Assembly: GCA_965208675.1 (NCBI GenBank) | Contig: OZ242351.1 | Span: 3,744,001-3,808,000 of the forward strand | Length of the DNA stretch: 64,000 nt | DNA from: Candidatus Poribacteria bacterium | Lineage (GTDB): Bacteria > Poribacteria > WGA-4E > PCPOR2b | Direction of reading: 5' to 3' | In this document: positions 10,548 to 55,535 of the stretch, in pieces | Position numbering within the stretch: the stretch's first letter is position 1 | How the letters are laid out: the number at the start of each line of letters is the position of its first letter | The notes under the pieces: model-generated | The model's database searches: none | Seen by the model: only the letters and a program-made list of their open reading frames with translations | Told to the model about the DNA's origin: nothing | Translations under genes and position numbers: made by a program

Positions 10548-11098
10548 TTTCTCCTAATTAAGTTGGTGGCGGCGAATGGCTCCTTCCCGTGTTGCTAATG
10601 GTAAGCCCTAGAAATGCTAACAACCACTAGTAAGTTATGAGTGTAACTAGGGAGAAGCGCACGCATCCGCCATAAGTTATTAATGGGCTTATTTGCGACA
10701 AAGCCCGGTTTCTATTAACAGTTGTCGCGTGTAGCGGCGTTAATAATCGTCGTTGAAAAATTTCCCCCAAGGAGGCAATAGTTTCTTCTGGAGCCATTTC
10801 GCCTGTTCTTACACGCTCGACGACCGCAAAGCACTCATAAGGAGTTTTGGACATTTAATGCAATACCTAGCTTCTTTCAACCCTTGTTGCATGTGACGCC
10901 TGAGATCAGAACTACTTGTCGCTACGGAGCATTTCGGTAAGTCCGCGAGCGCTAGCTAGAGAAGGTTAGGTATCAGTTGCTGTCTATTGAATTTCCATCG
11001 CATTCGCTATTCGCTCCATTGATCGCCGCGCCCAACCTACAACTGTAGGCATCAGCTTCATATTTCCCATATGGGATTCATCACTGTCCACGTTCTGG

Positions 11099-19051: not shown

Positions 19052-19056
19052 TCGGC

Positions 19057-41853: not shown

Positions 41854-43947
41854 ATGGCGGACACAAAGATTCTAATGCTTGCCAATAGAGACGCTCTTGA
41901 CCTCGAAATTGAGAATCGATTAAAAAATCTTGGATACACCGTTTGCACGTCGGCTTCATCTGGAACACAAACCATTGAAGAGATATCGAAAATGCAGCCC
42001 GATTTAGTCATGGTCAAACTTGGACTCGAAGGTGCTATGGCTGCCGTCGAAGATGCCGAGCAAATGTACTACCAGTTCAATATCCCGGTAATATTTCTGA
42101 TTGACTCAATAGCCGAAAATGCATTGGAAAAAATAAAGCGGACAGGTGTATTTGGTCATGTCTTCCATCCGTTCGACGGTAATCAATTATACTTGAGCGT
42201 AGAACAGCAACTCCGCTGGCATCGCGATACCACCAAATATAAAATGAACGAGGCGCAATCAAATAAAACTATTGGTGAGTTGCGCCATCAAACCCAACTG
42301 ATGGAAACCGTTTTTGATAGTATGTATGACGGTATCGTCGTTCTCAGTTTAACAGGTGAAATATTGTTCATTAATCCAAGTATACGACAACTGTTCGGTA
42401 CGGTGCCCTTGGGCGAATTACGCAGCGAATGGTCTGAAAGGCACGGTGTGTTTTACCCCGATAAAGAAACCCGCCTTCCAATCGATCAGATTCTTTCCAC
42501 ACATCTCGCCCGAGGTGTAGCAATTAGAGATGAAGAGCTTTTCATACGCAACGAGCAACGGACGGAGGGAGTCCACATCAAGGCGAGTGCCAGCCCCTTA
42601 TTTGATGAGAATCACAATGTTGTCGCCTGTGTGTGCGTTATTCGCGACATCACTAAGGACAAATTAGCAACCATACAGTTGGAACAAACGATGCAGGAAC
42701 TGGAAAATCAGGTTCAACTGACGAATACCATTTTTAATAGTATGGGGGATGGCGTAATCGCTGCCGATACAAGCGGCGCATTCACAATTTTTAATCCCAG
42801 TGCAAAAAAGATTCTCGGCATCGGATTAATAGATACAACCCCTGATAAATGGAGCGAGAGCTACGGTTTCTTTTTCCCTGATAGAGTTACACCCTTCCCG
42901 GCAGACGAACTGCCGCTTGCGTGTGCCCTTAAGGGAAGAGCCTCAGACGAGGTAGAGATGTTTGTGCGCAATCCGGAAGTGCCGGACGGTGTTTTTATCA
43001 GCGTCAGTGGAAGGCCGCTGCAGGACGAAGACAGTACAAAAAAGGGAGGGGTTATAGTTTTCCGCGATGTAACGCACCGGGTGATTGCCGAAGAAGCGTT
43101 GACACAAGCATTCGCACAAGGGCGGTTGGAAATTGTCGAGACCATCCTCCACAATATCGGTAACGCAATCAATAGCGTAACCGTAGGAGTTAACGTCCTC
43201 CAAGAGAATTTGGTGGGAAATCAACTCGTACGCCGCTTCTCGTCACTTGCCGATATGGTTAAAGCGCATCAAGAGGATTGGGTTAATTATATTAAAGATG
43301 ACCCGAAAGGACAGCAGGTGCTCCCATTTATAATTGCACTGGCTGCAGATATCGCCGACCAGAACAATAAAGTGGTCGAGACACTTGAGCGCGTCAGTGA
43401 AAGAGTGACGCATATCGTTGATATCATCCGAACGCAAAGAGCGTCCAATCAGACAAGTATGACCTGGAAAAATATCGACTTGCGGCAAACAATCTTGAGT
43501 ACGGTAAAATTACATCAAGAAGCGATCGACAAAAGGGGCATACATATAGATGTCAACTGCGAAAGCGCGCCCCAAGAGATTCGAGTTCAGGAGAGTCAAT
43601 TTCATCAGATGTTAGTGAATCTAGTCAAAAATTCAATTGAAGCTATTGATGAACGTATTCAATCTGGCGGACTCAAGCAACCCCTGCGTATCGCGTTAAA
43701 GGCTTATATCAGCGACGATTTTCTCTGCCTGGATGTTACCGATAACGGCATCGGTATTACACAAAAGAACTTGAAGTTGATTTTCACCGCTGGCTACACA
43801 ACCAAGCAATCCGGCACCGGGCTAGGCCTCTTTTCGAGCGCAAATTTTGTGATTGGATCCGGCGGGCAAATTTACGCCTTGAGCGAGGGTATCGGCACGG
43901 GCACAACCATGCGAATCAAGCTCCGCTGCTCCTCCGTTATTCCGTAA
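41854..43947 (+). CDS. Cytoplasmic sensor histidine kinase (degenerate REC-PAS-PAS-kinase)
   Basis: H box ILHNIGNAINS, N box NLVKNSIEA, DNGIGI, YTTK and GTGLGL; two PAS domains ending in RDIT/RDVT. Confidence 0.9.
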   Translation: MADTKILMLANRDALDLEIENRLKNLGYTVCTSASSGTQTIEEISKMQPDLVMVKLGLEGAMAAVEDAEQMYYQFNIPVIFLIDSIAENALEKIKRTGVFGHVFHPFDGNQLYLSVEQQLRWHRDTTKYKMNEAQSNKTIGELRHQTQLMETVFDSMYDGIVVLSLTGEILFINPSIRQLFGTVPLGELRSEWSERHGVFYPDKETRLPIDQILSTHLARGVAIRDEELFIRNEQRTEGVHIKASASPLFDENHNVVACVCVIRDITKDKLATIQLEQTMQELENQVQLTNTIFNSMGDGVIAADTSGAFTIFNPSAKKILGIGLIDTTPDKWSESYGFFFPDRVTPFPADELPLACALKGRASDEVEMFVRNPEVPDGVFISVSGRPLQDEDSTKKGGVIVFRDVTHRVIAEEALTQAFAQGRLEIVETILHNIGNAINSVTVGVNVLQENLVGNQLVRRFSSLADMVKAHQEDWVNYIKDDPKGQQVLPFIIALAADIADQNNKVVETLERVSERVTHIVDIIRTQRASNQTSMTWKNIDLRQTILSTVKLHQEAIDKRGIHIDVNCESAPQEIRVQESQFHQMLVNLVKNSIEAIDERIQSGGLKQPLRIALKAYISDDFLCLDVTDNGIGITQKNLKLIFTAGYTTKQSGTGLGLFSSANFVIGSGGQIYALSEGIGTGTTMRIKLRCSSVIP

Positions 43948-44236: not shown

Positions 44237-46126
44237 ATGGAATCAAAAGAGCATCGTAATTATCGTGTCTTAATCGTTGATGACGAAACCGCAATCCACA
44301 GAGACTTTAAAGATATGTTGACCCCAACCCGCACACAGACGTTAACAGATGAGTTGGTAGAAACCCTCCTAGACGAGGAGCCTGAGAATAATACCTCCTT
44401 TCTGCCCAACTTTGAACTTTTGCATGCGACAAGTGGAGAGGAGGGGTACGATATTATTCGCGCGGGAAAGGAATCAAACTGTCCGATTGCGGTCGCATAC
44501 ATTGATGTCAGAATGCCCCCGGGCATTGACGGGGTTGAAGCAATCCGCCGCATCAGGGAGATTGAAAAGGACATCGAACTGGTCATAATGACTGCTTACA
44601 CGGATAAACCGCTGCCTGAAATTGTCCGCGATATGGAGTTTCTTCACAAACTACTCTATATCCGAAAACCATTCGCACCGGAGGAGGTGCAGCAAATTAC
44701 GCTTGCCCTCGTCGAAAAGTGGAACATCGAACGTGAGTTAGCCAAAAAACAACAGCAAATCATAAGGAATCATCAGAGGCTTGAAACCATACTTGATTCT
44801 GCGGCTGATGCGATTGGAATGTTCGATGGCGACGGAAACCTGTTGTTCGCAAATCAACTCTATCAGCAACTGCTTGGATTTACAGGGGAACAGCTGAGAC
44901 AAATGCCCCCGGACGAGCTCAATACAGTTATTGAAGCGCGATTCCAAACGCCCGAACTATCGCAACTAGGACAGGCGCCGCCCGCTGAAAACCTTGAAAA
45001 CGTATTCGAAGAGATTGGAGAAGCCAGCCAGTCTGGGCAGAGGTTATTTTATCGCTCGATTACACCGGTACGGAACGATCAAGGCGATTCTGCTGGAGAC
45101 GTTGTCAGTTACCGCGATATGTCCAAAGACGTTGAGATTCAACAGATGAAATCTGAGGTGCTCCGTTTACGTGCTGAACTTGAAACCATTCTCTCCTTTG
45201 ATGAAATCATAGGCAAAAGCCGAAACATGCAGCAGATGTTCGAGTTGATGCAACGTGCAACTGAAAGTGATATTAGCGTGCTTATTTCAGGCGAAAGTGG
45301 AACTGGCAAAGAGTTGGCGGCGCGTGCAATCCACTTCAATAGCCCGCGAAAAGCGGGCCCATTTGTTTCAGTCAATTGCGCCGCCATTCCTGAATTGCTA
45401 ACTGAAAGCGAGCTATTTGGTCATGAACAAGGGGCTTTCACCGGTGCTACAACAAGGCGTATCGGCAAATTTGAACATGCAAATAGTGGTACAATCTTTT
45501 TTGATGAAATTGGAGATATGCATCTGGAGCTGCAAGCGAAATTGTTGCGTGTCCTCCAAGAACGGAAGATACAGCGTGTCGGCGGTGCAACCAATATCCC
45601 GGTTGATATCCGTGTGCTAACAGCCACAAACAAGAATCTAGAAGCTGCGATAAAATCGGGCGCTTTTCGGAAGGACCTGTTTTATCGGATCGCCGCTTTC
45701 CCCATTGTAATTCCCCCGCTTAGAGACCGGCGCGAAGATATTCCACTCTTGGCGAACCATTTTCTTAAAACATTCGCCGAAAAAATGGCAAAATCCGTAA
45801 AAGCGATTTCCGCCGATGCCTTGGGATTATTGATGCAATATGATTTTCCCGGCAACGTACGCGAGTTGCAAAACATCATTGAACGCGCTGTTCTGCTTGA
45901 GACCACTGAACTGCTGCAACCGAGCAACCTATCCCCACAGATTTCTGCTCCGGCTATCTTGTCATTCCTTAGCTCAACAGAAATCCTGCCGTTCGAGTTG
46001 ATTGAACGTCAGATTCTATCCCACGCACTCAAGATGAGTGACAATGATGTTAGGAGGGCTGCCGGAGCCTTGAATATCGGCAAATCAACACTGTATCGAA
46101 AATTAAAGTTCTATCAACTCAAATGA
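44237..46126 (+). CDS. Sigma-54-dependent response regulator (REC-PAS-AAA+-Fis HTH)
   Basis: IVDDE and IDVRMP receiver motifs; GESGTGKE, GAFTGA, FDEIG, PGNVREL; HTH ALNIGKSTLYRKL. Confidence 0.95.
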   Translation: MESKEHRNYRVLIVDDETAIHRDFKDMLTPTRTQTLTDELVETLLDEEPENNTSFLPNFELLHATSGEEGYDIIRAGKESNCPIAVAYIDVRMPPGIDGVEAIRRIREIEKDIELVIMTAYTDKPLPEIVRDMEFLHKLLYIRKPFAPEEVQQITLALVEKWNIERELAKKQQQIIRNHQRLETILDSAADAIGMFDGDGNLLFANQLYQQLLGFTGEQLRQMPPDELNTVIEARFQTPELSQLGQAPPAENLENVFEEIGEASQSGQRLFYRSITPVRNDQGDSAGDVVSYRDMSKDVEIQQMKSEVLRLRAELETILSFDEIIGKSRNMQQMFELMQRATESDISVLISGESGTGKELAARAIHFNSPRKAGPFVSVNCAAIPELLTESELFGHEQGAFTGATTRRIGKFEHANSGTIFFDEIGDMHLELQAKLLRVLQERKIQRVGGATNIPVDIRVLTATNKNLEAAIKSGAFRKDLFYRIAAFPIVIPPLRDRREDIPLLANHFLKTFAEKMAKSVKAISADALGLLMQYDFPGNVRELQNIIERAVLLETTELLQPSNLSPQISAPAILSFLSSTEILPFELIERQILSHALKMSDNDVRRAAGALNIGKSTLYRKLKFYQLK

Positions 46127-46339
46127 TAAGCGCTGTTTTCAACAACGCGCATTCCCAACCACCGGTAAGTGCGATTAAGCGATTGGATAGCGAGCGCGAT
46201 AAAGAGCCCCTTCCCAACCGCACCCGACACCATACGGTAATTTCCGGCAAAAATTTACATTTTTTTATCTTGAAAACGTTTTTCCTGCAAAAAAGTTATC
46301 CATTTACTGACCTAATCCTCCCCTAAAGCCTCCTCCTCC

Positions 46340-46453
46340 GTCCCAATATGGGACACAGTCCCATATTGAGAAAACGCCCGAATCCCGCGTCATTACAGGA
46401 TTTTCCGCCGATTTCCTCTGTTTCTGTCAATCCTATCTGTCCCATTATGGGAC
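46340..46453. promoter_or_regulatory. Palindromic enhancer-like (UAS) sites GTCCCA-N3-TGGGAC
   Basis: gtcccaatatgggac (46340), degenerate gtcccatattgagaa (46358) and gtcccattatgggac (46439), ~120-235 bp upstream of a sigma-54 promoter. Confidence 0.7.
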
Positions 46454-46574
46454 TTTTTCAACCTGCACCCTGTTACGCTACCGTCCGTCTGACTCCTTCC
46501 CATACCCATCAAAGCCAAGCTACCACTGGATTTCTATGCTTCTACAGAGTTGAATCCTTCCTTAGACCGACCGT

Positions 46575-46589
46575 TGGCACGGTTTTTGC
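46575..46589 (+). promoter_or_regulatory. Sigma-54 (-24/-12) promoter
   Basis: TGGCAC-GGTTT-TTGC matches TGGCAC-N5-TTGC, directly downstream of a bEBP gene. Confidence 0.85.
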
Positions 46590-47018
46590 CGTAGTAAAGC
46601 GGAGGCAAATCGTCTTTCTCTGATCCGGTTGGTTCAACGGAATGACGAATCCAAACATTTTTCGGTTGGCGCGATCATGCGCGTGGATAACGAGTGCGAT
46701 AGAGATCCCATTCCAACCCCACCCGCGACCGGAAAAATAACGGTGCGGTTAGGAAACCGAACCTACCGCGGTGTTTAAATGATCGTTTGGTTTGCTATAG
46801 AACGAAACATGGGATAGCAGCGGCTTTGACAGTCCTGCTGCCTTGTATTTGCGGTGCCAGTTGTAATGAAAGCGTGCTCCCAAGTTGTAACCCATACACA
46901 TGATGATGGATTAGGCAATAGTGCAAATTCAAACTAATATCACGGCCGGGTGGGTATAACAGATAATAACTATCAAAACATAATCACTTAGATTAACTCG
47001 ATATGAGAAGGATTTGAA

Positions 47019-47129
47019 ATGAGTCCTTTAGCAATCGTAATCCTCGCCATGATTGTATTGCCCTTAGTAGCAATTTGCTTCATCGTGAAAAAGGCTTATA
47101 AATCGGATTCAAAGGGAAAAACCAGATGA
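47019..47129 (+). CDS. 36-aa single-TM microprotein
   Basis: SD gaagga; MSPLAIVILAMIVLPLVAICFIVKKAYKSDSKGKTR. Confidence 0.55.
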   Translation: MSPLAIVILAMIVLPLVAICFIVKKAYKSDSKGKTR

Positions 47130-47302
47130 ACATCAAGGCAGACATTGAGAACATTAAGAAAATCATCGTTGGATTAATCATCAGCAATACACATAACTTC
47201 GGCACAGCGGAAGAAGATTTAGACGACCTTCAAACAGCGGCTGCTGAATTAATAGATGACCACAATACCTGTATGGTGACAGACAGTTTTTGGGTCGCTT
47301 AG
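47126..47302 (+). CDS. 58-aa hypothetical protein, ATGA-coupled to the previous ORF
   Basis: MNIKADIENIKKIIVG...; its stop codon lies inside the first hairpin. Confidence 0.5.
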   Translation: MNIKADIENIKKIIVGLIISNTHNFGTAEEDLDDLQTAAAELIDDHNTCMVTDSFWVA

Positions 47303-47424
47303 AGTTTATCCGATTCGCTGAGCAACACAGCAGCCCTTACTGTTTGTCACCGCCAAATTGAATATGACGGGGCGCGGGGAAACTCCTATGGGACACCGAC
47401 CACCCCCGCTCTAGCCCCGTCAAC
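47273..47424 (+). ncRNA. Putative structured RNA: double-hairpin unit 1
   Basis: TGGTGACAGACAG/CTGTTTGTCACCG stem, then TGACGGGGC-GCGGGG/CCCCGC-tcta-GCCCCGTCA stem. Confidence 0.55.
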
Positions 47425-47450
47425 TCTTTTCGGCAAATGGAGGTGAAACA

Positions 47451-47540
47451 ATGTTCAATATTGGTTTTCTACTCCTTTATTTTTTCATTATCGGGTTACT
47501 TACTGGCGTTGTTACTTTCATGCTAGAGCATCTCCTCTAG
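47451..47540 (+). CDS. 29-aa hydrophobic microprotein
   Basis: Strong SD GGAGGTG; MFNIGFLLLYFFIIGLLTGVVTFMLEHLL. Confidence 0.6.
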   Translation: MFNIGFLLLYFFIIGLLTGVVTFMLEHLL

Positions 47541-47808
47541 ATTGATTTTAACGAACATCTAAACCAATACGCTCTTATGTCTGGCGCGAAAGGCGTTTTG
47601 TTACGAATATAGACCCAAAAAAAACTAAAAAATACCCAGTCTGAAAAAAGTCCCAACATATTGCCCGCAGTTCGGCATGAATACGCTTGAATTATTGAGT
47701 GGCGCACGCGGCGGGCGAAGGGGGACGTTGCACGTTTTGCGGACACGGACGCAATCATCGGGCGTGCCGCGGACGGTGAATCACAAACTGAAAGCAAGGC
47801 AAATCCTT

Positions 47809-47873
47809 ATGGCGGGAGTGGGGGGATCTAGCCAACTTGTTCCACAACTAACACTGTTCCTGCTCCCGTCGCC
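47809..47873 (+). ncRNA. Putative structured RNA hairpin of the ATG...CRCC family
   Basis: TGGCGGGAGTGGGGG pairs with TTCCTGCTCCCGTCG using several G.U pairs. Confidence 0.5.
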
Positions 47874-47898
47874 TTATTACGAACGAAGGAATTTGCCC

Positions 47899-48186
47899 AT
47901 GAGATGGATTTACATTGTCCCTTGTAACACCAACGATGACAAAATATGGTTTATCAATGCGGACAATATCAAATCGATTCGGTTAATTAAATTAGATTTA
48001 TACCTTGGAACTAGTCAAATACGATTACCTCTTGGAACGAAACCCGATGATGCCAGACACTTTTTATACACGCTCGTAAATTGCCTTTCTCATTGGCAGG
48101 ACGGGCATGTGCTTACGCTGGTTATGGAAAGCCTTAGTTGCGCGTTTGAACGAGCGGACAAAGCAATAGCCGGCGGCAAAGCTTGA
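47899..48186 (+). CDS. 95-aa hypothetical protein
   Basis: SD gaagga before the ATG at 47899 (MRWIYIVPC...). Confidence 0.6.
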   Translation: MRWIYIVPCNTNDDKIWFINADNIKSIRLIKLDLYLGTSQIRLPLGTKPDDARHFLYTLVNCLSHWQDGHVLTLVMESLSCAFERADKAIAGGKA

Positions 48187-48233
48187 TTCGGTGCTTAGAA
48201 AATTGTGAATGGCTAAGTAAGCTGAAAACCCTT

Positions 48234-48437
48234 ATGACGGGCGGCTGCGATGGTCTTAATTGGGGCTGACATACCCTTCCTTTCCCATCGCAGTAATTGC
48301 CCGTCACCTTATGGCGAGAGCCGGGCTAACCCCGGTAGTCGTCGAGTAACTGAATAGGCGTAAAGGACGCCTATTTGGGCAAGAAAAATCCTGAGTTTAG
48401 TGGTGAGTTGGGCGTCGCCGGGCGGCGTAGCTCGGGT
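48234..48437 (+). ncRNA. Putative structured RNA: family hairpin (48234-48308) plus three further stem-loops
   Basis: TGACGGGCGG/TTGCCCGTCA with CTGCGATGG/CCATCGCAG; TGGCGA-GA-GCCGGG/CCCGGT-AG-TCGTCG; AATAGGCGT/ACGCCTATT; CCTGAGTT/AGCTCGGG. Confidence 0.5.
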
Positions 48438-48480
48438 ACGTTTTCAATCATTTGATGGAGTAAAACGAAAGGAGCTAACG

Positions 48481-49066
48481 ATGAAAAAAAGGGGTTAAAG
48501 TGTTTGGAAGATAAATCTTAATGCTGTCACTAGTGATTGCCGTTTCGCTTGCTTTTCTGAGTTGCGATGCGGTTTAGGACTTGGCGGACTTGTTGTCATC
48601 GCCGCCGTCAGAACAGGCGCACGCAGCGATCGGTTCGACGAGCGTAAGCGACGTAACAGGTACGGCGGTTTTCGAACAAATCGGAGATACAATCGCGCTA
48701 ACCATTGAGATTCAGAACGCGGAACCACGGCTCCGTGCCGTTCATTTCCACGAATACGGTGATTGCAGCGCACCCGACGGGACATCGGCAGGCGGGCATT
48801 GGAATCCGACCAACACCGCGCACGGCAAATGGGGTGAGGGTGAATTCCATCTCGGAGACATTGGCAATATAATGGTCGGCGAGGACGGCACCGGCAAAAT
48901 CGAACTGGCGACAGACCTTTGGGAAATCGGAACCGGTTCCATCCGCGACGTTGTCGGAAAAGGCATAATCGTTCATGCCGGCGCGGACGACTTTACGTCC
49001 CAGCCCTCAGGGGCTGCCGGCGCGCGAATCGGCTGCGGGTCGATTGTGTTGGCTGAATCGCAGTAA
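48481..49066 (+). pseudogene. sodC: Cu/Zn superoxide dismutase lipoprotein with a disrupted N-terminus
   Basis: Metal ligands intact (HFH, GGHWNP, HG, HLGD, VH, ARIGC); the SD and ATG at 48481 are out of frame across an A-run; in-frame TAA at 48512 and TAG at 48575 flank the lipoprotein signal SLAFLSC. Confidence 0.8.
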
Positions 49067-49074
49067 TCCCTCGT

Positions 49075-49234
49075 ATGGTGACAAACAGTTTTTTTTTGCT
49101 CGTAGTGTGTACGATTTGATGAGCAATACAATCTCCTTGGTTCTGTTTGTCACCGCCTAAACTTAATATGACGGGGCGCGGGTAAATTGTCCCATGGAAA
49201 CGAAACTCCTAAGTCAATTCGTGTCCCGTCTGCC
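49075..49234 (+). ncRNA. Putative structured RNA: double-hairpin unit 2
   Basis: TGGTGACAAACAG/CTGTTTGTCACCG, then GACGGGGCGCGGGT/ATTCGTGTCCCGTC; the ~40-bp junction is nearly identical to unit 1. Confidence 0.55.
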
Positions 49235-49267
49235 CAAATTTTTAATTTCAAAACAAGGGATCTCAAA

Positions 49268-50470
49268 ATGAATATCGGAAGAATCATATTATTTTCGTTT
49301 GTATTGGCAATTGTCCTCTTAATAATGGGGCTATCTGCTTGTGACCAGATTGGGCAACTACTCCTCCCCGCGCCGCCTGATAAGGAAGATGTAAGTGTAG
49401 AGATTCCCATCGGCGTTGTGCTACCAATTACGGGACGGCTCACCTCTACATTTGGGGAACCCACGGTCAACGGCTATGAACTCGCTCTCGAAGAGATTAA
49501 CAACTCAAAACTCGGAGGGAAAAGCATCAAGTTTATCCTTGAGGATGACCGAAGCAACATTGAGGGCGCGGTTGAAGCATTCAATAAACTGATTCAACAG
49601 GAAGGCGTATCTGTTATCCTCGGCCCCGCCACCTCAGGTCAGGCAGAGGTCGTGTTCCCGATAGCGCAAGAAAATCAGGTCGTCGCGTTTAGCCCTACAT
49701 CCGCCGGACGCGGTCTCAGCGCCATTAGCGATTTTGCCTTTCGTGTCTCTCTCACCACGGATGTGCTGATTCCAAGCGGTATTGAGGCGACTTACGCTAA
49801 ACTCGGCTATAAGAAAGCCGCTACGATGTACGATGAAAGCGATGTCTTCTCCACGGATAGCGATGAAGCAGTGAGGGAATCGCTTGCCGCGAAGGGCGTC
49901 GAGGTATTGGTAACAGAGACGTTTCAAGGCGGCGACACCGATTTTAGCGAACAATTATCTCGGATAAGGGAGGCACACCCCGATATTATCTTTGTCTCCT
50001 CTTTATCGCCGGAAAAACCGGGAATTCTGATGCAAAGCCGCCAACTCGGTATACCCGACTCGGTGCCGTTTGTTATGCGCACCTTGACCATAGCTGACGT
50101 ACGTGCGGCGGGTGAGGCTGCCGAGGGGGCGATTACTTTCGTCGGGTGGGTAAGCACTGCCGACACACCGGCAAATGGCGCCTTCGTCCAGAACTATCGC
50201 GCCAAATACGGGGTGGATCCGAGTAATTCCGCAGCGCGGTCATATACCACGCTCCATGTTCTGGCGGAAGCCATTGCCAACGCCAAATCCACGGACTCAA
50301 TCTCGATTCGAAACGCATTGGCAAATATCGCGGACTTCGACACGGTCTTCGGTAAGTTCTCTTTTGACGCCGTCGGGGATGCCGTTTACGACCCAAAGAT
50401 ATTGATTGTCATTGACGGTCAATTGGAATTCTTTGAACAACCGTTTTTAGCAGCTCGGCAAAAGAGGTAG
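49268..50470 (+). CDS. LivJ-type ABC substrate-binding lipoprotein
   Basis: Lipobox LSAC; motifs IGVVLPITG, LALEEIN, ILGPATS and DTDFSEQL; SD before the ATG at 49268. Confidence 0.9.
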   Translation: MNIGRIILFSFVLAIVLLIMGLSACDQIGQLLLPAPPDKEDVSVEIPIGVVLPITGRLTSTFGEPTVNGYELALEEINNSKLGGKSIKFILEDDRSNIEGAVEAFNKLIQQEGVSVILGPATSGQAEVVFPIAQENQVVAFSPTSAGRGLSAISDFAFRVSLTTDVLIPSGIEATYAKLGYKKAATMYDESDVFSTDSDEAVRESLAAKGVEVLVTETFQGGDTDFSEQLSRIREAHPDIIFVSSLSPEKPGILMQSRQLGIPDSVPFVMRTLTIADVRAAGEAAEGAITFVGWVSTADTPANGAFVQNYRAKYGVDPSNSAARSYTTLHVLAEAIANAKSTDSISIRNALANIADFDTVFGKFSFDAVGDAVYDPKILIVIDGQLEFFEQPFLAARQKR

Positions 50471-50530
50471 TGCGTCTATCGAACCCGGTCAGCGTGTTCC
50501 GGGTGTGGTTTTTCTATCAACCAATAACTC

Positions 50531-50598
50531 ATGACAGGGCGCGGGTAAAGCACTTTACATTGCCCCAACTCTCTTGTGTCAATCCGTTCCCTGTCGCT
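50531..50598 (+). ncRNA. Putative structured RNA hairpin of the ATG...CRCC family
   Basis: TGACAGGG/CCCTGTCG (compensatory A-T replacing G-C) and GCGGGT/ATCCGT. Confidence 0.5.
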
Positions 50599-50627
50599 CA
50601 TTGTTTAAAGGAAGGAGGCATTAAAAG

Positions 50628-50819
50628 GTGTCCATGAACGGAGAAAAGGATATCACACAGTCCACCGTGATGATACGGCTGACAGAACGGCAGGAAATAA
50701 TCTTGAAAGAAGCCAAGAACGCGACCGGAGTTTCGTTTGGCTCGCTTATCCGAAAGTGTATAGACATGAATATCGAATACCTTCACCGTTTGACTATTGG
50801 GGCGAAGCAGAAGGATTGA
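50628..50819 (+). CDS. Small putative ribbon-helix-helix (CopG-like) DNA-binding protein
   Basis: Strong SD aggaaggagg; TVMIRLT strand followed by LKEAKNATGVSFGSLIRKCI. Confidence 0.6.
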   Translation: MSMNGEKDITQSTVMIRLTERQEIILKEAKNATGVSFGSLIRKCIDMNIEYLHRLTIGAKQKD

Positions 50820-50844
50820 AGCTTGCACATAGCCTGATTTTCTT

Positions 50845-50916
50845 ATGACAGGGCACGGAAAAAAGATCCAATCCTGCGGATTTGCGCCCTATCCGAGCGC
50901 TCCCGCCCCTGTCGCC
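50845..50916 (+). ncRNA. Putative structured RNA hairpin of the ATG...CRCC family
   Basis: cttATGACAGGG...CCCTGTCGCC. Confidence 0.5.
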
Positions 50917-50977
50917 TTAATTGCGCGGTGCAATTACACCGACTGACGCCGTTGCAAGCGTGATGAAAGGAGGAACA

Positions 50978-51181
50978 ATGTGCGATTCTCCTGTAAATTT
51001 CGACGACCAGACGCAAAGATTGATCGAAGAAGATAAGTTGCTAGATACTATCGCGGACGCAGCCAAACGTCTCTGCGGACGCCGTCCAACCCACCAAGAG
51101 GTTGAGGATTTCCTAAAACTTATTGAAGGCGTAAAGCCCATAAACACAAAACAAAACAAAGGAGAGTTATCAAATGATTAG
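50978..51181 (+). CDS. 67-aa hypothetical protein
   Basis: SD aaggagg before the ATG at 50978; overlaps the start of the next gene. Confidence 0.55.
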   Translation: MCDSPVNFDDQTQRLIEEDKLLDTIADAAKRLCGRRPTHQEVEDFLKLIEGVKPINTKQNKGELSND

Positions 51182-52388
51182 AACATGCATCACCCAATTC
51201 GTTTTTGCAACTGCGGTTATCGGCCTCGTTGCCGGGCTTTGCGGTTGCGATATAGTAGCTGAACTATTGACCCAAACCGACGACGGTTCTGATATTGAAG
51301 CCCCTGCTCGTATTGACATCGGCTTGATTGCGCCGCTCACGGGCGAGTACGCCGCGCCGTATGGTCTATCGATGGAGCGCGGTTTTAATCTTGCGCGCGA
51401 CGAAATCAATGGGCTGCCGAATAACCTACTTACGATTAATATCCTACCAGAGGATGATATGAGCACCCGAGACGGTATGGTATCCGCGTTTGAACGACTG
51501 ATTCAGGCGGGCGTTCCCGCTATTGTCGGAATCGCCATCTCGGAGCACGCGCAGCACGCTTTCCCGATAGCGCAAGAGAATCGGGTTGTGGTTTTCAGCT
51601 CCGTGTCAGCCGCCGCCGGTCTGAGCAGCATCGGGGATTACATCTTTCGCGCTGCCCTAGCTGTAGATAAGATGAATCCGGCGGGTGTCAACATCACACA
51701 TGAGGCGATTGGTTATGAAAACGCGGCAATGATATTTGACGACGCCGATCTCTACTCCACGAGCAGCTACGAACACTTGGCGGCGGCGCTTTTGAACCGC
51801 GGCGTGGATGTGTTGTTGACCGAGACGTACCAGTCCGGCGACACCGACTTCACAGCGCAATTGACCGCGATAATGGAAGCTAACCCGGACGCGCTCTTTG
51901 TTTCAGGTCTGGCTCCGGAAATCGTGAGCGTGGTGGTACAGGCACGGGAGATTGGCATTGAGGCGGATTATATCGTTCCGGAATTAGGCATAAACGATAT
52001 TCAACAAGCGGGCGCCGCGGCGGACGGCGTTATCACTTTCACCGGTTGGGATAGCTCAGTGGACAATCCGATAAATCATGCGTTTGTTGCCAGCTATCAA
52101 GCGGCATACGGCATCGCGCCCGACCCGTGGGCGGCTCAGTCATACGCAGCGCTTTACATCCTTTACAGCGCAATTTTAGAGGGGTCAATTTCAACGGAAT
52201 CTACAACGATTGCGGTTCCTGATTCTGCCGCGATTCGCGACGCTTTGGCTGCAGTGCAAGACTTCGGCACCAACCTAGGGCTCTTCTCATTTGACGCCGA
52301 GGGCGAGGCGCTTTACGAGCCGGTTGTGCTGACAATCAAGGACGGCAGTCTAATACCGTTCCGCGGCCCAGGAATCGCGTCGCCGTAA
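51174..52388 (+). CDS. LivJ-type ABC substrate-binding lipoprotein (paralogue of 49268)
   Basis: Lipobox LCGC; motifs IGLIAPLTG, FPIAQEN and GDTDFTAQL. Confidence 0.9.
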   Translation: MIRTCITQFVFATAVIGLVAGLCGCDIVAELLTQTDDGSDIEAPARIDIGLIAPLTGEYAAPYGLSMERGFNLARDEINGLPNNLLTINILPEDDMSTRDGMVSAFERLIQAGVPAIVGIAISEHAQHAFPIAQENRVVVFSSVSAAAGLSSIGDYIFRAALAVDKMNPAGVNITHEAIGYENAAMIFDDADLYSTSSYEHLAAALLNRGVDVLLTETYQSGDTDFTAQLTAIMEANPDALFVSGLAPEIVSVVVQAREIGIEADYIVPELGINDIQQAGAAADGVITFTGWDSSVDNPINHAFVASYQAAYGIAPDPWAAQSYAALYILYSAILEGSISTESTTIAVPDSAAIRDALAAVQDFGTNLGLFSFDAEGEALYEPVVLTIKDGSLIPFRGPGIASP

Positions 52389-52409
52389 TACGCCTTTTGG
52401 CAGTTTTTG

Positions 52410-52587
52410 GTGGGAGAGGCTTCCTAGCCTCGATTATCAATCAGTCGATTTCTCCTTGTAAAAAATGAACCAAAATGACCATAACAAAGTGCTTTGGCTT
52501 ACGCTCCATCGTTCATATTTTCTAACGCAGTCAAACCATGTAACCCACACGGCGCATTGTCTATACCGCTCAACCGAACCTACAAAT
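52410..52587. repeat. Composite REP/MITE-like element; related copies at ~55518-55660, ~58436-58692, ~59212-59332 and ~9930-10043
   Basis: Shared gtgggagaggcttcctagcctcgattatcaatcagtcgat and/or gttacgctccatc...cgctcaacc.aacctacaaa blocks. Confidence 0.75.
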
Positions 52588-52706
52588 ACTCATTACGATT
52601 TACGTTTTACTCACTTTGTGCGCACCGCAAAAACCATATCAAAAATCTGCCTGCCGAATCTGAACGAATTTAAGGCATATATTAAAGGAGTAATTAAGTA
52701 GACCAA

Positions 52707-53678
52707 ATGACCCGAGACGAAGCATTTCGCATTTTGGGGCTGGAATACAATGCGACACTAGACGATGCCAAGAAAGCCTATCGTGACCGCGTGAAAGTCA
52801 TGCACCCGGACAAGGATCCGTCGTCCGGTGCAAAACTACGCTTTATACTTGTCCAAAACGCATACGAAGTGATTACGAACCAACTTGTGAAAGACAAGCC
52901 TGCAAAGCAGGTTAGTACACGACCGGAAAGAGAACATCCGGCAAAGACACGAACGCACCACACGGATAGAGAAACCCATGCTGTTCGCTACTTTGAGCAC
53001 GGTGTACAAATGTATGAACTCGAGCAATATGCCGATGCAATTGCGGAGTTCGACGCTGCGATTCTATTTAATCCAAACTTTGCGGACGCCTGCTACGCCT
53101 GCGGCATCGCGAAATATGCTTCTAGACAATACGCCGCATCAATTCCAGACTTTGACGTCGCAATACGGCTTTATCCTAATTTTTTGGACGACTGCCATTA
53201 TTGGCGCGGTAGGGCAAAGTATAAGCTAAAACAATATTCCGCATCGCTGGCGGACTTCGACGCTGCAATAGGGCTTGAAGTTAACGTTTGTGCATACTAT
53301 TACTGGCGAAGTACGGCGAAGTTTAAGTTAGGACAATATGCCGCTAGTGTTCACGACTACGACGAGGTGATTCGCTTGGAACCGGATTATGTTGACGCCT
53401 ACTACTGGCGTGGTAGGGCGAAGTATGAGATAGGACATTATGCGGCTAGCGTTCACGACTACAACAAAGCGATACGAATGAAACCGGATTATGCCGACGC
53501 GTATTGTCATCGAGGTAGGGCGAAGTACGAGTTGGAACAATACGCCGAAGCTGTTCAGGACTTTGATGAGGCAATACGTCTGAGACCGGGTCTTAAGTAC
53601 GCTAGATACGGACGATTCAGAGCGAGGAATGAGTTGAAAAATGGGAACACCTCCTACACTGAGCCAGTTGATTGGTAG
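52707..53678 (+). CDS. J-domain + TPR repeat protein
   Basis: AFRILGL...KKAYR...HPDK, followed by about six TPR units (YYWRGRAKY..QYA.SV.DFD.AIRL.P). Confidence 0.9.
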   Translation: MTRDEAFRILGLEYNATLDDAKKAYRDRVKVMHPDKDPSSGAKLRFILVQNAYEVITNQLVKDKPAKQVSTRPEREHPAKTRTHHTDRETHAVRYFEHGVQMYELEQYADAIAEFDAAILFNPNFADACYACGIAKYASRQYAASIPDFDVAIRLYPNFLDDCHYWRGRAKYKLKQYSASLADFDAAIGLEVNVCAYYYWRSTAKFKLGQYAASVHDYDEVIRLEPDYVDAYYWRGRAKYEIGHYAASVHDYNKAIRMKPDYADAYCHRGRAKYELEQYAEAVQDFDEAIRLRPGLKYARYGRFRARNELKNGNTSYTEPVDW

Positions 53679-53776
53679 AATCTCAGCGCACGCGCCAACG
53701 TGCCGCCGCTGTCCGCGTTGCGCTAGCAGAACTTTTGAAAATGACATAGCCTAACCAAGAACACAGGGAGAGAGTA

Positions 53777-54052
53777 ATGTCAAAATCAGATGGCGTTCCG
53801 ATTGGACAAACGCAGGAAGTTTTTCGCGCAATTGAATCGGGCAAAATACTAGAGAACGAGGAACTGTTCGGTCGTTTGGTGTGCTGGTGTTTCTATTGAT
53901 ATCAAGGCGTGCCGTTCGGCGTTCAAGAGGCGTGTCAGGAGGTCAAAAAGTGGACACGTGAAATAACTGAAAGCGTACAAAGTTATCCACAATTCTTCCA
54001 CAATGCGACTATTGCACTCCCCGACGCGCTTAAAAACAATCCTAAGGTCTAA
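53777..54052 (+). pseudogene. Small gene interrupted by one in-frame TGA (53897)
   Basis: SD gggag; 40 codons, TGA, then 50 more open codons to TAA at 54050-54052, which abuts a family hairpin. Confidence 0.45.
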
Positions 54053-54121
54053 ATGACGGGCAGCTGGCGTTTTTTGGGGTATACAGCACCCCATCCTTTC
54101 CGCCAGCAAATGCCCGTCACC
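54053..54121 (+). ncRNA. Putative structured RNA hairpin of the ATG...CRCC family
   Basis: TGACGGGCA/TGCCCGTCA, GCTGGCG/CGCCAGC and inner GGGGT/ACCCC; same architecture as 48234. Confidence 0.55.
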
Positions 54122-54448
54122 ATATTGCAGTTGTATTGAATTGTATTGGTTAAGGCGGTGAAATAAATGCCGATGTTGAAGCTATATCGAATAAGGAGGA
54201 TATAAGATGAAAGTTTAGGACATGAAAGTTGACGAGTTTGATTATCGCATTAAGAAGATTGTTAAAGACGAGTCTAGGCTGTCTATTGATTCAGCGTTAG
54301 AGAGTAAACTGCTGAATGGGGTACCTTGATAAATTTCGTCGAAAGCGCTGTGGATTTATCAATTCAAAAGCATGTTTCTGGTGATTAACAATCTATTCGC
54401 TTAATTTAATCGGTATGTAATCCTGAAAACAAAAAAAAAGGAGAAAAA

Positions 54449-55015
54449 ATGTTTCAACAAGTAATCGCCCGTTCTTTTTTGTGGTTAATCCCCCTTTTCG
54501 CGGTTCTCATTGTCGGAATCATCGCTTGTGGCGGTGACGAAGATGATGATACTGATGGACATGGTCATGAAAATGGTCATGAAAACGGTGATGTTAATGC
54601 TAATGATTGGGTTGGCACGTGGAAAATCGAAACCGTTGATGGTGAGGACTACGAGCAAGTCTTTGTAGAAAACTTAGAAGAAGAATTTGGAGAGGGCGTA
54701 AAAGTTTCCATTGTCGCCAACAGATACACGTTTAATAACGATGGCACACTAGAATCGGAATTTAAATTCAAGACGACAGGGAAAATAGGAGATGAAGACG
54801 TTTCTGGGACGCTTTCCCTTAAAGGAACGGGCACTTACGCCCTATCTGGCTCCAACTATACAATCACAGCCACACAGCGGGAAGAAGGAACTGGTTGGTT
54901 TGAAGGAGAGCAAGAAACCTGGACAGAGGATGAGTCCGGCACATGGTCAAGAGAGGGAAATTCCCTCACAATGAACAGCGATCAAGATGCTGTAGTTGTC
55001 TTGAAAAAGCAATAA
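54449..55015 (+). CDS. Lipoprotein, lipocalin-like beta-barrel
   Basis: Lipobox IIAC, acidic/His linker, WVGTWK, GTY, GTWS. Confidence 0.75.
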   Translation: MFQQVIARSFLWLIPLFAVLIVGIIACGGDEDDDTDGHGHENGHENGDVNANDWVGTWKIETVDGEDYEQVFVENLEEEFGEGVKVSIVANRYTFNNDGTLESEFKFKTTGKIGDEDVSGTLSLKGTGTYALSGSNYTITATQREEGTGWFEGEQETWTEDESGTWSREGNSLTMNSDQDAVVVLKKQ

Positions 55016-55191
55016 GTAGGATCGGATGACATTAGACATCTTTCCAAAATCATTCCGCCGCCCGATAGCCCCAGCGGGGCGGCAGGTGTAAAACGACTAC
55101 CCTCACATTGGGCTAATACGCTGTAGGGGCAACCCTTGTGGTTGCCCTTAACGCTTCGGTTTTGTCAACCACATTGAGTTAAATAGGAAAG

Positions 55192-55535
55192 ATGTCTATT
55201 GTAACTGCGCCGCCAGTAGACCCCGAATCCCCGTACTCGTTGCGGCGGATATTGGCATGGTAGATTCATTAACACGCGAGCGTTTTGGTCCGTATGGAGC
55301 GCCGATGCGGCGTGGATTTAATCTAGCGCGTGATGAGCCTAATCTTCCGATGGCGATAAACCTGATTCCGGCGGATGATATGCGCACGGCGCAAGAAATG
55401 ACAGAAGCATTTGAAAATCAGATTGAGATGGGTGTTCCCGCGATTCTAGGTATGGCGATATCGTCTTTTGTTCGGCAGGCTCTTCCGATAGCTCAACTTT
55501 TGTCGTTTGGGTTAAACGATCAACTGAGCGAATAG
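55192..55535 (+). pseudogene. Truncated fragment of a LivJ-type binding-protein paralogue
   Basis: PYGAPMRRGFNLARDE..MAINLIPADDM..GVPAILGMAIS resembles the 51174 gene; truncated at a GATCAA mini-repeat. Confidence 0.75.

Follow-up and report, generated by a model that had tools for sequence, protein, structure and literature searches.

Apparently undescribed long hairpin repeats between the small genes of sigma-54-controlled arrays in Poribacteria

Introduction

Integron attC sites, or 59-base elements, are imperfect palindromes 57-141 nt long in which the ends are conserved and the centre varies. One lies behind each promoterless gene of a co-oriented array that is read from a single promoter. 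One strand folds, the core sites have the consensus RYYYAAC / GTTRRRY, and array content varies among close relatives. The poribacterial hairpins described here share with attC sites the palindrome with conserved ends and a variable centre, the co-oriented single-promoter array, the folded strand, and the variable content. However, their feet are not RYYYAAC / GTTRRRY, and integrase, attI, and Pc are absent. Their promoter is sigma-54-dependent and has its own two-component regulator, and units without a gene are also found, in tandem and in leaders.

REP and BIME elements are clustered, often between the genes of one operon, and carry a short conserved tag at the hairpin foot. REPINs are hairpins of about 100 nt in which a variable spacer separates two inverted, conserved ends, and REPs have been proposed to stabilise upstream mRNA. 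REP/BIME elements and RAYT-associated REPINs are extragenic palindromic repeats (PMC3733652, PMC3116915). The poribacterial units are likewise clustered extragenic palindromes between genes, with a conserved tag at the hairpin foot. Across the family they measure 58-110 nt, compared with 20-40 nt for REPs, and their tag is neither GTAG nor CGTC. They form many stem subfamilies instead of copies of one master sequence, and their orientation is strictly genic, whereas that of REPs alternates. In the DNA seen they are confined to sigma-54 arrays, and no RAYT was seen.

ERIC and Correia (NEMIS)-type MITEs are imperfect palindromes of about 100-150 nt in transcribed spacers, with short target duplications. 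They fold in mRNA and are reportedly cut by RNase III or RNase E, altering the stability of flanking cistrons. The poribacterial units are also imperfect palindromes in presumably transcribed spacers. However, ERIC and Correia elements have a full-length consensus that is well conserved and occur in both orientations genome-wide, whereas only the feet of the poribacterial units are conserved and they have one orientation. RNase III sites in the early region of phage T7 are stem-loops between cistrons, and cleavage leaves a protective hairpin on the upstream message. The poribacterial units would similarly be stem-loops between cistrons of one long transcript, and some have an asymmetric internal loop on the 3' side. 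Unlike the T7 sites, they are cellular, they form a repeat family with gain and loss of units, and their cleavage is putative. Without interruption their basal stems run for 8-26 bp, in many cases less than two turns of the helix.

Results

The window (the whole 64,000-nucleotide stretch of poribacterial DNA that was analysed) contains a regulatory gene pair followed by a gene array with hairpins (Table 1). The hybrid histidine kinase has 82% identity to its counterpart in the syntenic ortholog L002, and the activator has 29 relatives in Poribacteria with 53-80% identity. The inverted repeat behind the activator gene is kept in L002 and multiplied in L022, and its arms are found again in the second palindrome; both are likely to be activator binding sites. 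The initial annotation associated the array with sigma-54, which is borne out by the location of the window's sole perfect promoter match downstream of the sigma-54 activator gene. A near-identical promoter is present 300-450 nt 3' of the activator gene in almost all 29 Poribacteria loci. Hairpins are absent from L002, the closest ortholog, which has the same promoter and leader as the window, and in all 18 of the 29 loci lack them. The sigma-54 module can therefore do without the hairpins, which counts against the RNA-level reading discussed below.

Table 1. Features of the window. R1 and R2 are covariance models of the hairpins.
Feature	Coordinates	Strand	Evidence	Placement and remarks
Tenth hairpin copy, outside array	10568..10674	-	R2 35.7 bits, E 5e-7 (in R2 training set)	22 nt 5' of start of minus-strand ORF 10547..10047
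Hybrid histidine kinase (receiver, PAS, HATPase)	41854..43947	+	Pfam	
Sigma-54-dependent activator (receiver, PAS, AAA+ sigma-54 interaction domain, Fis-type HTH)	44237..46126	+	Pfam Sigma54_activat E 2.4e-70	
Perfect 10-bp inverted repeat, 3-nt spacer	46345..46367	none		Candidate activator binding site
Second palindrome	46439..46453	none	Half-site identical to 46345..46367	Candidate activator binding site
Sigma-54 promoter (-24/-12)	46575..46589	+	TGGCAC-N5-TTGC, perfect match, unique in 64 kb	
Array of unrelated, mostly small genes	47019..55535	+		
Hairpin, type A (with 49074-49157)	47272..47354	+	-33.1 kcal/mol, z -4.5; R1, R2	
Hairpin, type B	47363..47424	+	-31.0 kcal/mol, z -4.0; R1	28 nt 5' of start codon of 29-aa ORF
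Hairpin	47808..47873	+	-24.4 vs -16.6 kcal/mol on opposite strand; R1, R2	21-27 nt 5' of 95-aa ORF
Hairpin, type C (with 54052-54121)	48233..48308	+	-38.5 kcal/mol, z -6.8; R1 62.4 bits, R2 42.9 bits	3-nt bulge in 3' arm
Short hairpin, 5' foot only	48311..48345	+	-19.4 kcal/mol, z -3.4; unmatched by R1, R2	Probably a truncated unit
Hairpin, type A	49074..49157	+	Folding; R1, R2	Begins 9 nt past SOD stop codon
Hairpin, type B	49167..49233	+	Folding; R1	36 nt 5' of start of binding-protein gene 49268-50470
Hairpin, type B	50530..50598	+	Folding; R1, R2	31 nt 5' of start of RHH-like gene 50628-50819
Hairpin, type B	50844..50916	+	Folding; R1, R2	63 nt 5' of 67-aa ORF 50978-51181
Hairpin, type C	54052..54121	+	-38.8 kcal/mol, z -6.8; R1, R2	Begins 1 nt past a stop codon

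All nine core hairpins of the array fold on the plus strand as initially described (-24.4 to -38.8 kcal/mol, z -1.9 to -6.8). For six of them 0 of 200 shuffles fold as well, and for those at 47809, 49168, and 50845 the numbers are 8, 3, and 5. Their shared ends were also recovered, with a TATG(A/G) start and a C(A/G)CC-type end. Model R1 was built from the nine core hairpins and run unfiltered on both strands of the 64 kb. It scores the nine, which are its training set, at 38.7-62.4 bits; the next best match has 9.4 bits (E 1.3). The start word ATGRCRGG occurs 14 times (8.7 expected), seven of them in the array, and the end word CCYGTCRCC six times (1.8 expected), four of them in the array. 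Folding had been thought to favour the plus strand; by energy this holds for six of the nine and not for the other three, and it is clear only in the wider family. Three weaker candidates (46809, 47699, and 53685) fell away, as they are equalled by 70, 103, and 58 of 200 shuffles and matched by neither R1 nor R2. A fourth, at 48311, is a short hairpin and has the 5' foot only. Placement shortly before a strong Shine-Dalgarno sequence was found for five of the ten window copies (start codon 21-36 nt away) and not for the other five. Contrary to the claim that the rest of the window has no such hairpins, one lies at 10570-10672 on the minus strand.

The hairpins apparently form a real, undescribed family of long repeats between small genes of sigma-54-controlled Poribacteria arrays. 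They had been called unrecognised, and Rfam returned zero matches, whether judged by gathering score or by E<=1. Comparison with plasmids and phages was likewise negative, and a literature search found no relevant paper on them. A wider model and motif scans identified 28 further copies in 11 of the 29 related Poribacteria loci, making 38 with the ten window copies. The family spans Poribacteria, and the array at 46575..54121 is one instance. Each of the 28 further copies has the sense of the genes and lies 3' of a nearly identical sigma-54 promoter, which comes after each activator paralog. Model R2 detected no copies in the 724 kb of 51 loci from other phyla, and its 29 matches at E<1 (23 training sequences and 6 new) are all in the window or Poribacteria loci. 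In 660 kb from Poribacteria, words of the 5' foot number 35 on the plus strand and one on the minus strand; 724 kb from other phyla contain four. Within the loci, 32 of 32 foot-word matches are downstream of the activator gene and 0 upstream; space outside long open frames is comparable on the two sides (45.7 kb downstream vs 31.5 kb upstream). A unit consists of a long basal stem whose sequence varies, an interior that is also variable and often branches, and short single-stranded feet that are conserved (5' ..CTTA|TGR.., 3' ..YCR|CC, often with AAYTTA next). Poribacteria DNA also contains other repeat families, including GTAG-tagged palindromes.

Covariation of the stems was upheld. In the six basal pairs, cells with a change on both sides number 23, compared with 7.1 +/- 1.8 in shuffles, and 0 of 500 shuffles reach 23; pairing was a criterion for choosing the sequences of this test, which makes the accompanying figure of 98.2% paired circular. 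Ten subfamilies, with alifold structures fitted to the alignments, have 216 consensus pairs, of which 147 are invariant, 24 have a change on one side with pairing kept, 19 have changes on both sides, and 26 are broken in at least one copy. Variable columns make up 101 of 432 paired and 170 of 337 unpaired columns. Family counts are not independent events because the copies are related. Decaying copies also exist (for example, L003 12472-12543, -13.9 kcal/mol).

The view that one strand is the folded one is supported by wobble mismatches, which strongly favour the sense strand (G.T 52 vs A.C 6); outside the eight stem positions that served for detection, the numbers are 25 vs 4 (p 1e-4). Folding is better on the sense strand in 24 of 34 copies (p 5e-4). 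This wobble bias is also expected if single-stranded DNA of that strand folds. Bulges of 3-4 nt are present on the 3' arm in three of nine copies. CTCC/TCCT words occur 41 times in 23 of 34 interiors and their complement four times in three of 34, with C and G content balanced. This anti-Shine-Dalgarno-like CUCCU loop motif is sense-specific, and predictions leave it unpaired more often than other parts of the interior (0.62 vs 0.43; 24 hairpins, p 0.008).

Genes flanking the hairpins belong to unrelated families, in agreement with the initial annotation. The array encodes small ORFs of 36, 58, 29, 95 (47899-48186; six homologs), and 67 aa, a Cu/Zn SOD with an in-frame TAG, an ORF with an in-frame TGA, two Peripla_BP_6 lipoproteins and one fragment, and RHH-like, DnaJ-TPR, and lipocalin-like genes. 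All 38 hairpin copies follow the direction of the neighbouring gene, including the single minus-strand copy. GC skew keeps the same sign from that copy to the array, which suggests that both are on the same replichore. Eight of 34 copies end 21-36 nt 5' of a Shine-Dalgarno sequence and start codon. Several begin 1-15 nt past the stop codon of a real gene (SOD, L020 lipocalin, and ORFs of 193 codons in L010 and 129 codons in L013). The array has no excess of sigma-70-like promoters (17 sites vs 12.6 +/- 4.2 in shuffles) or of terminators, and the terminator scan picks up no hairpin; it is therefore plausible that the array is read as one long transcript.

Hairpin units are gained and lost in register between relatives. 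Segments 47222-50611 and approximately 50830-51194 are missing from L002, where hairpins are absent together with the intervening genes. Compared with L001, L014, and L017, L003 has one whole extra unit with a different stem sequence exactly at the linker. Truncated half-units in L006 adjoin the end of a TPR gene and a SOD fragment. Tandem copies have the same 8-nt linker between them, and an A+B module is present twice, behind two genes that are unrelated, and the homology begins at the hairpin foot; block 49065-49186 has 77% identity to 47264-47382. Subfamilies are common to arrays with different genes, and CTTA is found on both flanks of three of the ten window copies and of many copies in the loci. 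Tandem arrangement, truncation of copies, and gain or loss of one unit at a time give the family the dynamics of REP/MITE-like repeats. In-register insertion of units, half-units, a word on both flanks, and shared subfamilies are features of mobile or recombining DNA, and they are points against a reading at the RNA level. No recombinase was found in the window or the 11 hairpin-bearing loci (tyrosine recombinase in 0 of 54 window proteins and 0 of 122 proteins of hairpin-bearing loci). Near the hairpins of the window, and of 10 of the 11 loci, neither a transposase nor a recombinase was found. L017 has a TnpB-type gene.

Discussion

The hairpin family most likely acts in RNA. On the best reading, which is tentative and has somewhat less than an even chance, the units are REP/MITE-like stem-loops that are transcribed; as punctuation of the sigma-54 transcript they would serve processing, stability, or the insulation of translation. 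The initial annotation had offered three proposals, and punctuation or processing of a long inducible transcript fits best because of the strict co-orientation, the sense-strand wobble bias, and the tight placement between stop codons and ribosome-binding sites. For an array of small RNAs or guides, the loop motif is the one feature that would speak in favour. The third proposal, single-stranded DNA recombination sites of a cassette array, is weighed below.

The units could instead be DNA repeats that are selfish or recombine passively, in the manner of REPINs, MITEs, or IS200/IS605-derived elements; they would spread as DNA hairpins and have no RNA function. Spread would be by a transposase encoded elsewhere or by slippage or unequal exchange at the repeated feet, and the orientation and wobble bias would reflect strand folding during mobilisation. 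The common linker of tandem copies, the extra unit in L003, the half-units in L006, the doubled A+B module, and the flanking CTTA words are all consistent with this, as are the pseudogenes and fragments in arrays, the other repeat families with their GTAG-tagged palindromes, and the TnpB-type gene. However, apart from one of the 11 hairpin-bearing loci, no transposase or recombinase was found near the hairpins, and stem diversity is far above that of single-master copying, yet changes on both sides keep pairing. Every copy follows gene direction, even the minus-strand copy, which, judging by GC skew, probably shares the replichore of the array; the loop motif is sense-specific, and copies are limited to regions downstream of sigma-54 promoters instead of being scattered. 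We consider such repeats unlikely, although they deserve serious weight. Recombination sites like attC, by which a gene and its hairpin would form a promoterless cassette shuffled behind the sigma-54 promoter, are improbable. A recombinase encoded elsewhere would have to act on the folded sense strand. The layout is integron-like, with one promoter and then co-oriented, small, unrelated genes, often of unknown function (one antitoxin-like, several pseudogenes), and the imperfect palindromes with conserved ends and variable centres extend from just past stop codons to just before the next ribosome-binding site. Gene content is unlike that of L002, families of binding proteins, TPR, STAS, lipocalin, and SOD return in other arrays in changed order, and the 3' arm bulges also fit. 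Against this, inverse core sites of the canonical RYYYAAC / GTTRRRY consensus are at the feet of 0 of 10 window copies, tyrosine recombinases were not found among the proteins searched, and several hairpins are in tandem or in a leader with no intervening gene. The L002 breakpoints are at non-equivalent points of hairpins, one of them 51 nt upstream of a hairpin and inside an ORF, and exchange between 14-nt conserved junctions can explain in-register indels without a dedicated enzyme.

Translational riboregulators or processed small RNAs, whose pyrimidine-rich, anti-Shine-Dalgarno-like loop would pair with ribosome-binding sites downstream or of other genes and thereby control translation, are quite unlikely. 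The abundance and predicted exposure of the loop motif and the hairpins that end close to Shine-Dalgarno sequences suggest such pairing, but about a third of subfamilies lack the motif, and many units have no gene after them. Complementarity to the neighbouring ribosome-binding site appears, by eye, to be only 4-6 nt, and any untranslated spacer should be depleted of GGAG-like words. Transcription terminators or attenuators between independently transcribed genes would account for stable, GC-rich hairpins after stop codons, but no hairpin is followed by a T run, the terminator scan matches none, and promoter-like sites are not in excess. The 21-36 nt between several hairpins and the start codon that follows leave no room for a promoter, and terminators are very improbable.

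If the units punctuate RNA, they would be in transcribed non-coding spacers of arrays run by a sigma-54 promoter behind a histidine kinase/activator pair. Each unit would fold on the sigma-54 transcript into a stable stem-loop between cistrons. An endonuclease may cut in or beside the conserved A/U-rich linker, or RNase III may cut in the stem, and the hairpin would then cap the upstream message at its 3' end and the downstream message at its 5' end. This would give each cistron separate stability and insulate its ribosome-binding site, which follows at 21-36 nt. As DNA, arrays with such recurring feet would readily gain and lose whole units along with the intervening genes. The family looks like a variant of known intergenic repeat elements rather than a new kind of system.

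Results

A two-component gene pair and a sigma-54 promoter precede an array of unrelated genes in the window (Table). Besides tiny membrane ORFs and ORFs of 95 and 67 aa, the array encodes a Cu/Zn superoxide dismutase (SOD), two Peripla_BP_6 lipoproteins with a fragment of a third, and RHH-like, DnaJ-TPR, and lipocalin-like proteins; two reading frames have in-frame stops. On the strength of its six homologs (95-97 aa, 58-89% identity), the 95-aa ORF is counted as a real gene. None of the 54 window proteins scanned belongs to an integrase, transposase, or nuclease family. There are no tRNA or tmRNA genes in the window.

The array also holds gene remnants. The SOD gene (48521-49066) has an in-frame TAG at 48575-48577, which separates its lipoprotein signal peptide (ATG at 48521) from the enzyme body, and start candidates farther upstream are also interrupted by stops. 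Its homolog in Poribacteria locus L001 is intact, and the window gene is probably a pseudogene or reflects a sequencing error. ORFs 53777-53899 and 53909-54052 are in one frame with a single TGA between them; reading through it (53777-54052) gives a protein of ~91 aa with no Pfam match. The third Peripla_BP_6 gene is a 92-aa fragment (55257-55535), paralogous to the N-terminal part of 51174-52388.

Features of the regulatory module, repeats, and motifs (window positions unless a locus is named)
Feature	Position	Strand	Remarks
Hybrid histidine kinase	41854-43947	+	Pfam
Sigma-54-dependent activator	44237-46126	+	Pfam Sigma54_activat, E 2.4e-70
Two palindromes	46345-46367 and 46439-46453		3' of activator gene; one common half-site
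Sigma-54 promoter	46575-46589	+	Sole perfect match in 64 kb; downstream of both palindromes
Array of unrelated genes	47019 to ~55535	+	Downstream of two-component pair and promoter
Repeat of ~95 nt	46145-46240 and 46660-46745		77% column identity; first copy directly 3' of activator stop codon, second in sigma-54 leader
GTAG-tagged palindromes	about 9939-10036, 58597-58683, 59041-59140; L020 about 6200-6440		Second repeat family
Inverted repeat	893-959		Perfect, 17 bp, 33-nt loop; spacer between genes 334-852 and 948-1712
Loop motif examples	47383-47390, 49206-49212; L017 12517-12523	sense	
Leader motif	L001, L002, L003, L006, L007, L010, L013, L014, L016, L017, L020, L029		First ~100 nt after promoter

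The nine core hairpins of the array fold as the initial annotation had claimed, with energies of -24.4 to -38.8 kcal/mol and z scores of -1.9 to -6.8. For six of them none of 200 shuffled sequences folded as well, and for the other three 3, 5, and 8 of 200 did. Their conserved ends were borne out by alignment (ATG invariant at the start, GTC invariant at the end), which also gave seven consensus pairs, two of them changed on both sides. The weaker candidates at 46809, 47699, and 53685 could not be distinguished from shuffles, and the one at 48311 is a short hairpin that keeps the 5' foot only. The proposed + strand folding preference is seen by energy alone in six of the nine core hairpins and is not seen in the other three. 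Arms have 3' bulges of 3-4 nt in three of the nine array copies (47364, 48234, and 54053) and are continuous or have symmetric mismatches in the others. Contrary to the statement that the window has no such hairpin elsewhere, a tenth copy with identical feet lies at 10570-10672 on the minus strand, where it stops 22 nt short of a minus-strand gene's start codon. It came from a broader scan than R1, the covariance model built from the nine hairpins; run unfiltered on both strands of the window, R1 gave nothing above 9.4 bits beyond its nine. No Rfam match was obtained at gathering score in the window or in six related loci, or at E<=1 in 46000-55500.

The activator protein was used as query to retrieve 80 loci, the best 29 of which are from Candidatus Poribacteria (L001-L029, 53-80% identity); the other 51, from non-Poribacteria phyla (724 kb), served as controls. 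Copy counts cover the 64 kb window and 29 stretches of about 20 kb. A near-identical sigma-54 promoter, TGGCACAGTTTATGC or one base off, is found 300-450 nt after the activator gene in almost all 29 Poribacteria loci, and a matching promoter was not found at that distance in L015 and L021. Up to three promoter copies occur per locus (three each in L022 and L024), and each Poribacteria genome has several paralogous kinase/activator modules.

As a family detector, the window-only model R1 did not generalise, with a single marginal match (E 0.047) in 1.3 Mb of loci. The wider family surfaced only through foot-and-stem scans and through R2, a model built from 28 sequences. Its general form is 5' ..(A)NCTTA, then TGR-stem...stem-YCR, then CC, often with AAYTTA next. 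In this search of related genomes, 11 of the 29 loci proved to carry the family (L001, L003, L006, L010, L011, L013, L014, L017, L020, L021, and L023), with 28 copies in all. At E<1, R2 gave 29 matches, every one in the window or in Poribacteria (23 training sequences and 6 new), and none in the 724 kb of other phyla; these counts are lower bounds, since default filters recover only 23 of the 28 training sequences. In Poribacteria DNA, the + strand has 35 occurrences of two 5' foot words and the minus strand has one; the other phyla have four. All 32 foot-word matches in the loci are downstream of the activator gene and none upstream, where the space outside long open frames is similar (45.7 kb downstream vs. 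31.5 kb upstream). These distributions indicate that the family is lineage-specific and, within the DNA covered, tied downstream of sigma-54 promoters, with the tenth window copy the sole exception. Plasmid and phage collections gave no match, and the portions of the literature consulted contain no link of Poribacteria to integrons, sigma-54 arrays, or palindromic repeats. The family is real and is new to Rfam and to these collections.

All 38 copies (10 in the window and 28 in the loci) are co-oriented with neighbouring genes. GC skew does not change sign between the minus-strand tenth copy and the array, so the orientation of this one copy follows transcription, not replication. Several copies follow a real gene's stop codon by 1-15 nt and thus fill the whole intercistronic spacer. 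In eight of 34 copies, the hairpin end is followed 21-36 nt later by a Shine-Dalgarno sequence and start codon. The window has five of these eight, so the earlier placement of the hairpins shortly before a strong Shine-Dalgarno holds for half of the ten window copies and not for the other five. Some copies are tandem, joined by an identical 8-nt linker, and some lie 45-340 nt past the promoter, within the untranslated leader.

Intrinsic terminators consist of a GC-rich stem followed by a T run. No hairpin has a T run on its 3' side, and the 3' flanks are CC plus an A/T-mixed stretch. A terminator scan of 46000-56000 identified 10 terminator-like sites, with no family member among them, and neither promoter-like nor terminator-like sites are in excess in the array. 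Readings of the hairpins based on terminators or promoters were rejected.

Pairing is conserved across the copies. At six basal pairs, 23 alignment cells are changed on both sides, compared to 7.1 +/- 1.8 in column shuffles, and none of 500 shuffles reached 23. Eighteen of 28 sequences have U.G as the outermost basal pair, and the other 10 have U-A. Basal pairs are 98.2% paired, a circular figure because the sequences were chosen by pairing. Uninterrupted basal stems are 8-26 bp. Ten subfamilies (29 sequences), with structures fitted to their own alignments, have 216 consensus pairs: 147 are invariant, 24 have a one-side change with pairing kept, 19 are changed on both sides, and 26 are broken in at least one copy. 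Columns in these subfamilies vary half as often when paired (101/432) as when unpaired (170/337).

Strand asymmetry was measured by aligning arm against arm under a strand-symmetric score. There are 52 mismatches that can form a wobble pair in the sense strand but not in its complement vs. 6 of the opposite kind (25 vs. 4 outside the eight detection positions, p 1e-4), and for 24 of 34 copies folding is better on the sense strand (p 5e-4), counts that come from related copies and so are not independent events. An anti-Shine-Dalgarno-like pyrimidine word (CUCCU type) is present in 23 of 34 interiors, compared to 3 of 34 for its complement. In structure predictions, this loop motif is preferentially unpaired (0.62 vs. 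0.43 for the remaining interior). By eye, its match to the neighbouring ribosome-binding site, with which it might form a pseudoknot, is 4-6 nt.

Units and genes turn over between loci. Compared to the window, L002 (the closest, syntenic ortholog) has 92-96% identity in the pyruvate dehydrogenase genes, 82% in the kinase, and 80% in the activator, and it retains the promoter, both palindromes, and parts of the leader. Three genes make up its array (the 36-aa ORF, the RHH-like gene, and a binding-protein gene in decay), and R2 found no copy in L002. Window segments 47222-50611 and about 50830-51194, which carry eight of the nine hairpins between them, are missing from L002. One breakpoint is directly after a hairpin 3' foot, and the other is within an ORF, 51 nt before a hairpin; gene-plus-hairpin blocks are missing, with breakpoints at non-equivalent hairpin positions. 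Locus L003 has one additional unit, with a different stem, exactly at the linker between units common to L001, L014, and L017. In L006, a half-unit adjoins the end of a TPR gene, and another unit adjoins a 30-codon SOD fragment. A pair of hairpin types (A+B) is duplicated in the window behind two unrelated genes (47272-47424 and 49074-49233), with homology beginning at the first foot. Gene content and order differ between arrays, and TPR, STAS, lipocalin, binding-protein, SOD, and LRR/dockerin families recur in different orders. Among the 122 proteins of the 11 hairpin-bearing loci, mobile-element genes are found in L017 only. They encode an rve integrase and TnpB (OrfB_IS605/Cas12f-like) at 18729-20930, 6-8 kb downstream of a hairpin; the TnpB-type gene indicates that IS605-family elements exist in Poribacteria genomes.

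Other repeats and motifs were also observed. The leader copy of the ~95-nt repeat folds well on the + strand (z -3.0) and stands in place of a structured-looking leader motif that is conserved in most other Poribacteria loci. Farther downstream, some loci have a conserved motif, a GC stem, and a T run directly before a hairpin unit; this composite of motif and terminator-like stem was sought in the window and was not above chance. Neither the leader motif nor the composite matches Rfam, and both may be cis-regulatory RNAs. The GTAG-tagged palindromes have the form GTAGGTTGGGTT...AACCCAACCTAC, and GTAG is the typical tag of classical REP elements.

Discussion

Integron attC sites have inverse core sites at their two ends (R'' RYYYAAC and R' GTTRRRY) and extrahelical bases on the recombined strand, and gene and site are mobile as one cassette. 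Integrons have an adjacent tyrosine-recombinase integrase, with attI and Pc. The Poribacteria arrays are close to integrons in layout, but the analogy fails two defining tests, core sites and integrase. AAC...GTT feet are present in none of the 10 window copies, which have ..TTATGR.. and ..YCRCC.. instead, and no Phage_integrase is encoded among the 54 window or 122 hairpin-locus proteins.

The units were also compared to transcribed intergenic palindromic repeats. REP and REPIN elements are palindromes of 20-40 nt, or pairs of them, tagged GTAG or CGTC (PMC3733652). The Poribacteria units differ in size (58-110 nt) and have other feet. REP/REPIN elements are also associated with a RAYT (Y1 HUH transposase) gene and have a high genome-wide copy number. 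No RAYT gene was found in the window or the hairpin-bearing loci, and copies cluster downstream of sigma-54 promoters within the 64 kb and the 29 stretches of about 20 kb. We would place the family among these repeats (REP/REPIN, ERIC, Correia) as a further variant, one that is unusual in conserving only its feet, in its many co-varying stem types, in its single orientation, and in its restriction to sigma-54-switched accessory-gene arrays.

The reading we favour is that the hairpins are stem-loops between cistrons that would determine RNA ends, stability, and translational insulation. In favour of action at the transcript level are strict co-orientation with genes, a wobble bias and a loop motif that are both specific to the sense strand, pairing kept across very different stems, confinement downstream of sigma-54 promoters, and how tightly units fit between a stop codon and the next ribosome-binding site. 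RNase III sites of the T7 type, which have about two turns of dsRNA and are cut by RNase III, are likewise intercistronic. In the Poribacteria units, the putative cut would fall either within the stem or within the single-stranded linker, which is conserved and A/U-rich.

Other observations speak for behaviour at the DNA level: units are gained and lost in register, truncated copies exist, flank words are repeated, and units are missing from the ortholog L002. The simplest cause of this turnover is exchange or slippage between the ~14-nt conserved junctions, which needs no enzyme of its own; a transposase or recombinase encoded elsewhere is conceivable. MITEs have terminal inverted repeats and a target-site duplication. 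Hairpin arms are inverted repeats by construction, and CTTA, found on both flanks in three of 10 window copies and many locus copies, may just as well belong to the unit or be a signal in the RNA. Another reading, which we consider improbable, is that sigma-54-switched "cassette arrays" are numerous in Poribacteria and depend on the hairpin units as functional elements of a new system for shuffling or punctuating genes. The units may then be structure-recognised single-strand recombination sites for a recombinase unrelated to integron integrases, or they may be signals at which the induced transcript is cleaved to give separate mRNAs and small hairpin RNAs displaying anti-Shine-Dalgarno loops. 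The initial annotation was largely right in its observation of the hairpins, although its proposal of a new kind of system is so far unsupported.

Poribacteria are uncultured sponge symbionts, and to our knowledge nothing is known of their RNA biology or mobile DNA. Their genomes are rich in paralogous modules, in each of which a kinase, a sigma-54 activator, and a promoter precede an array of small genes, secreted or unknown, that changes fast. A structured-repeat family is dedicated and confined to these arrays and is under sense-strand constraint. If the hairpins are processing or stability signals, they would be a natural operon punctuation that is directly readable in metatranscriptomes. 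If they are recombination sites, the arrays would amount to a device for gene capture that resembles an integron but differs from it in promoter logic and enzyme. Under either reading, the covariance model provides an annotation handle for these loci.
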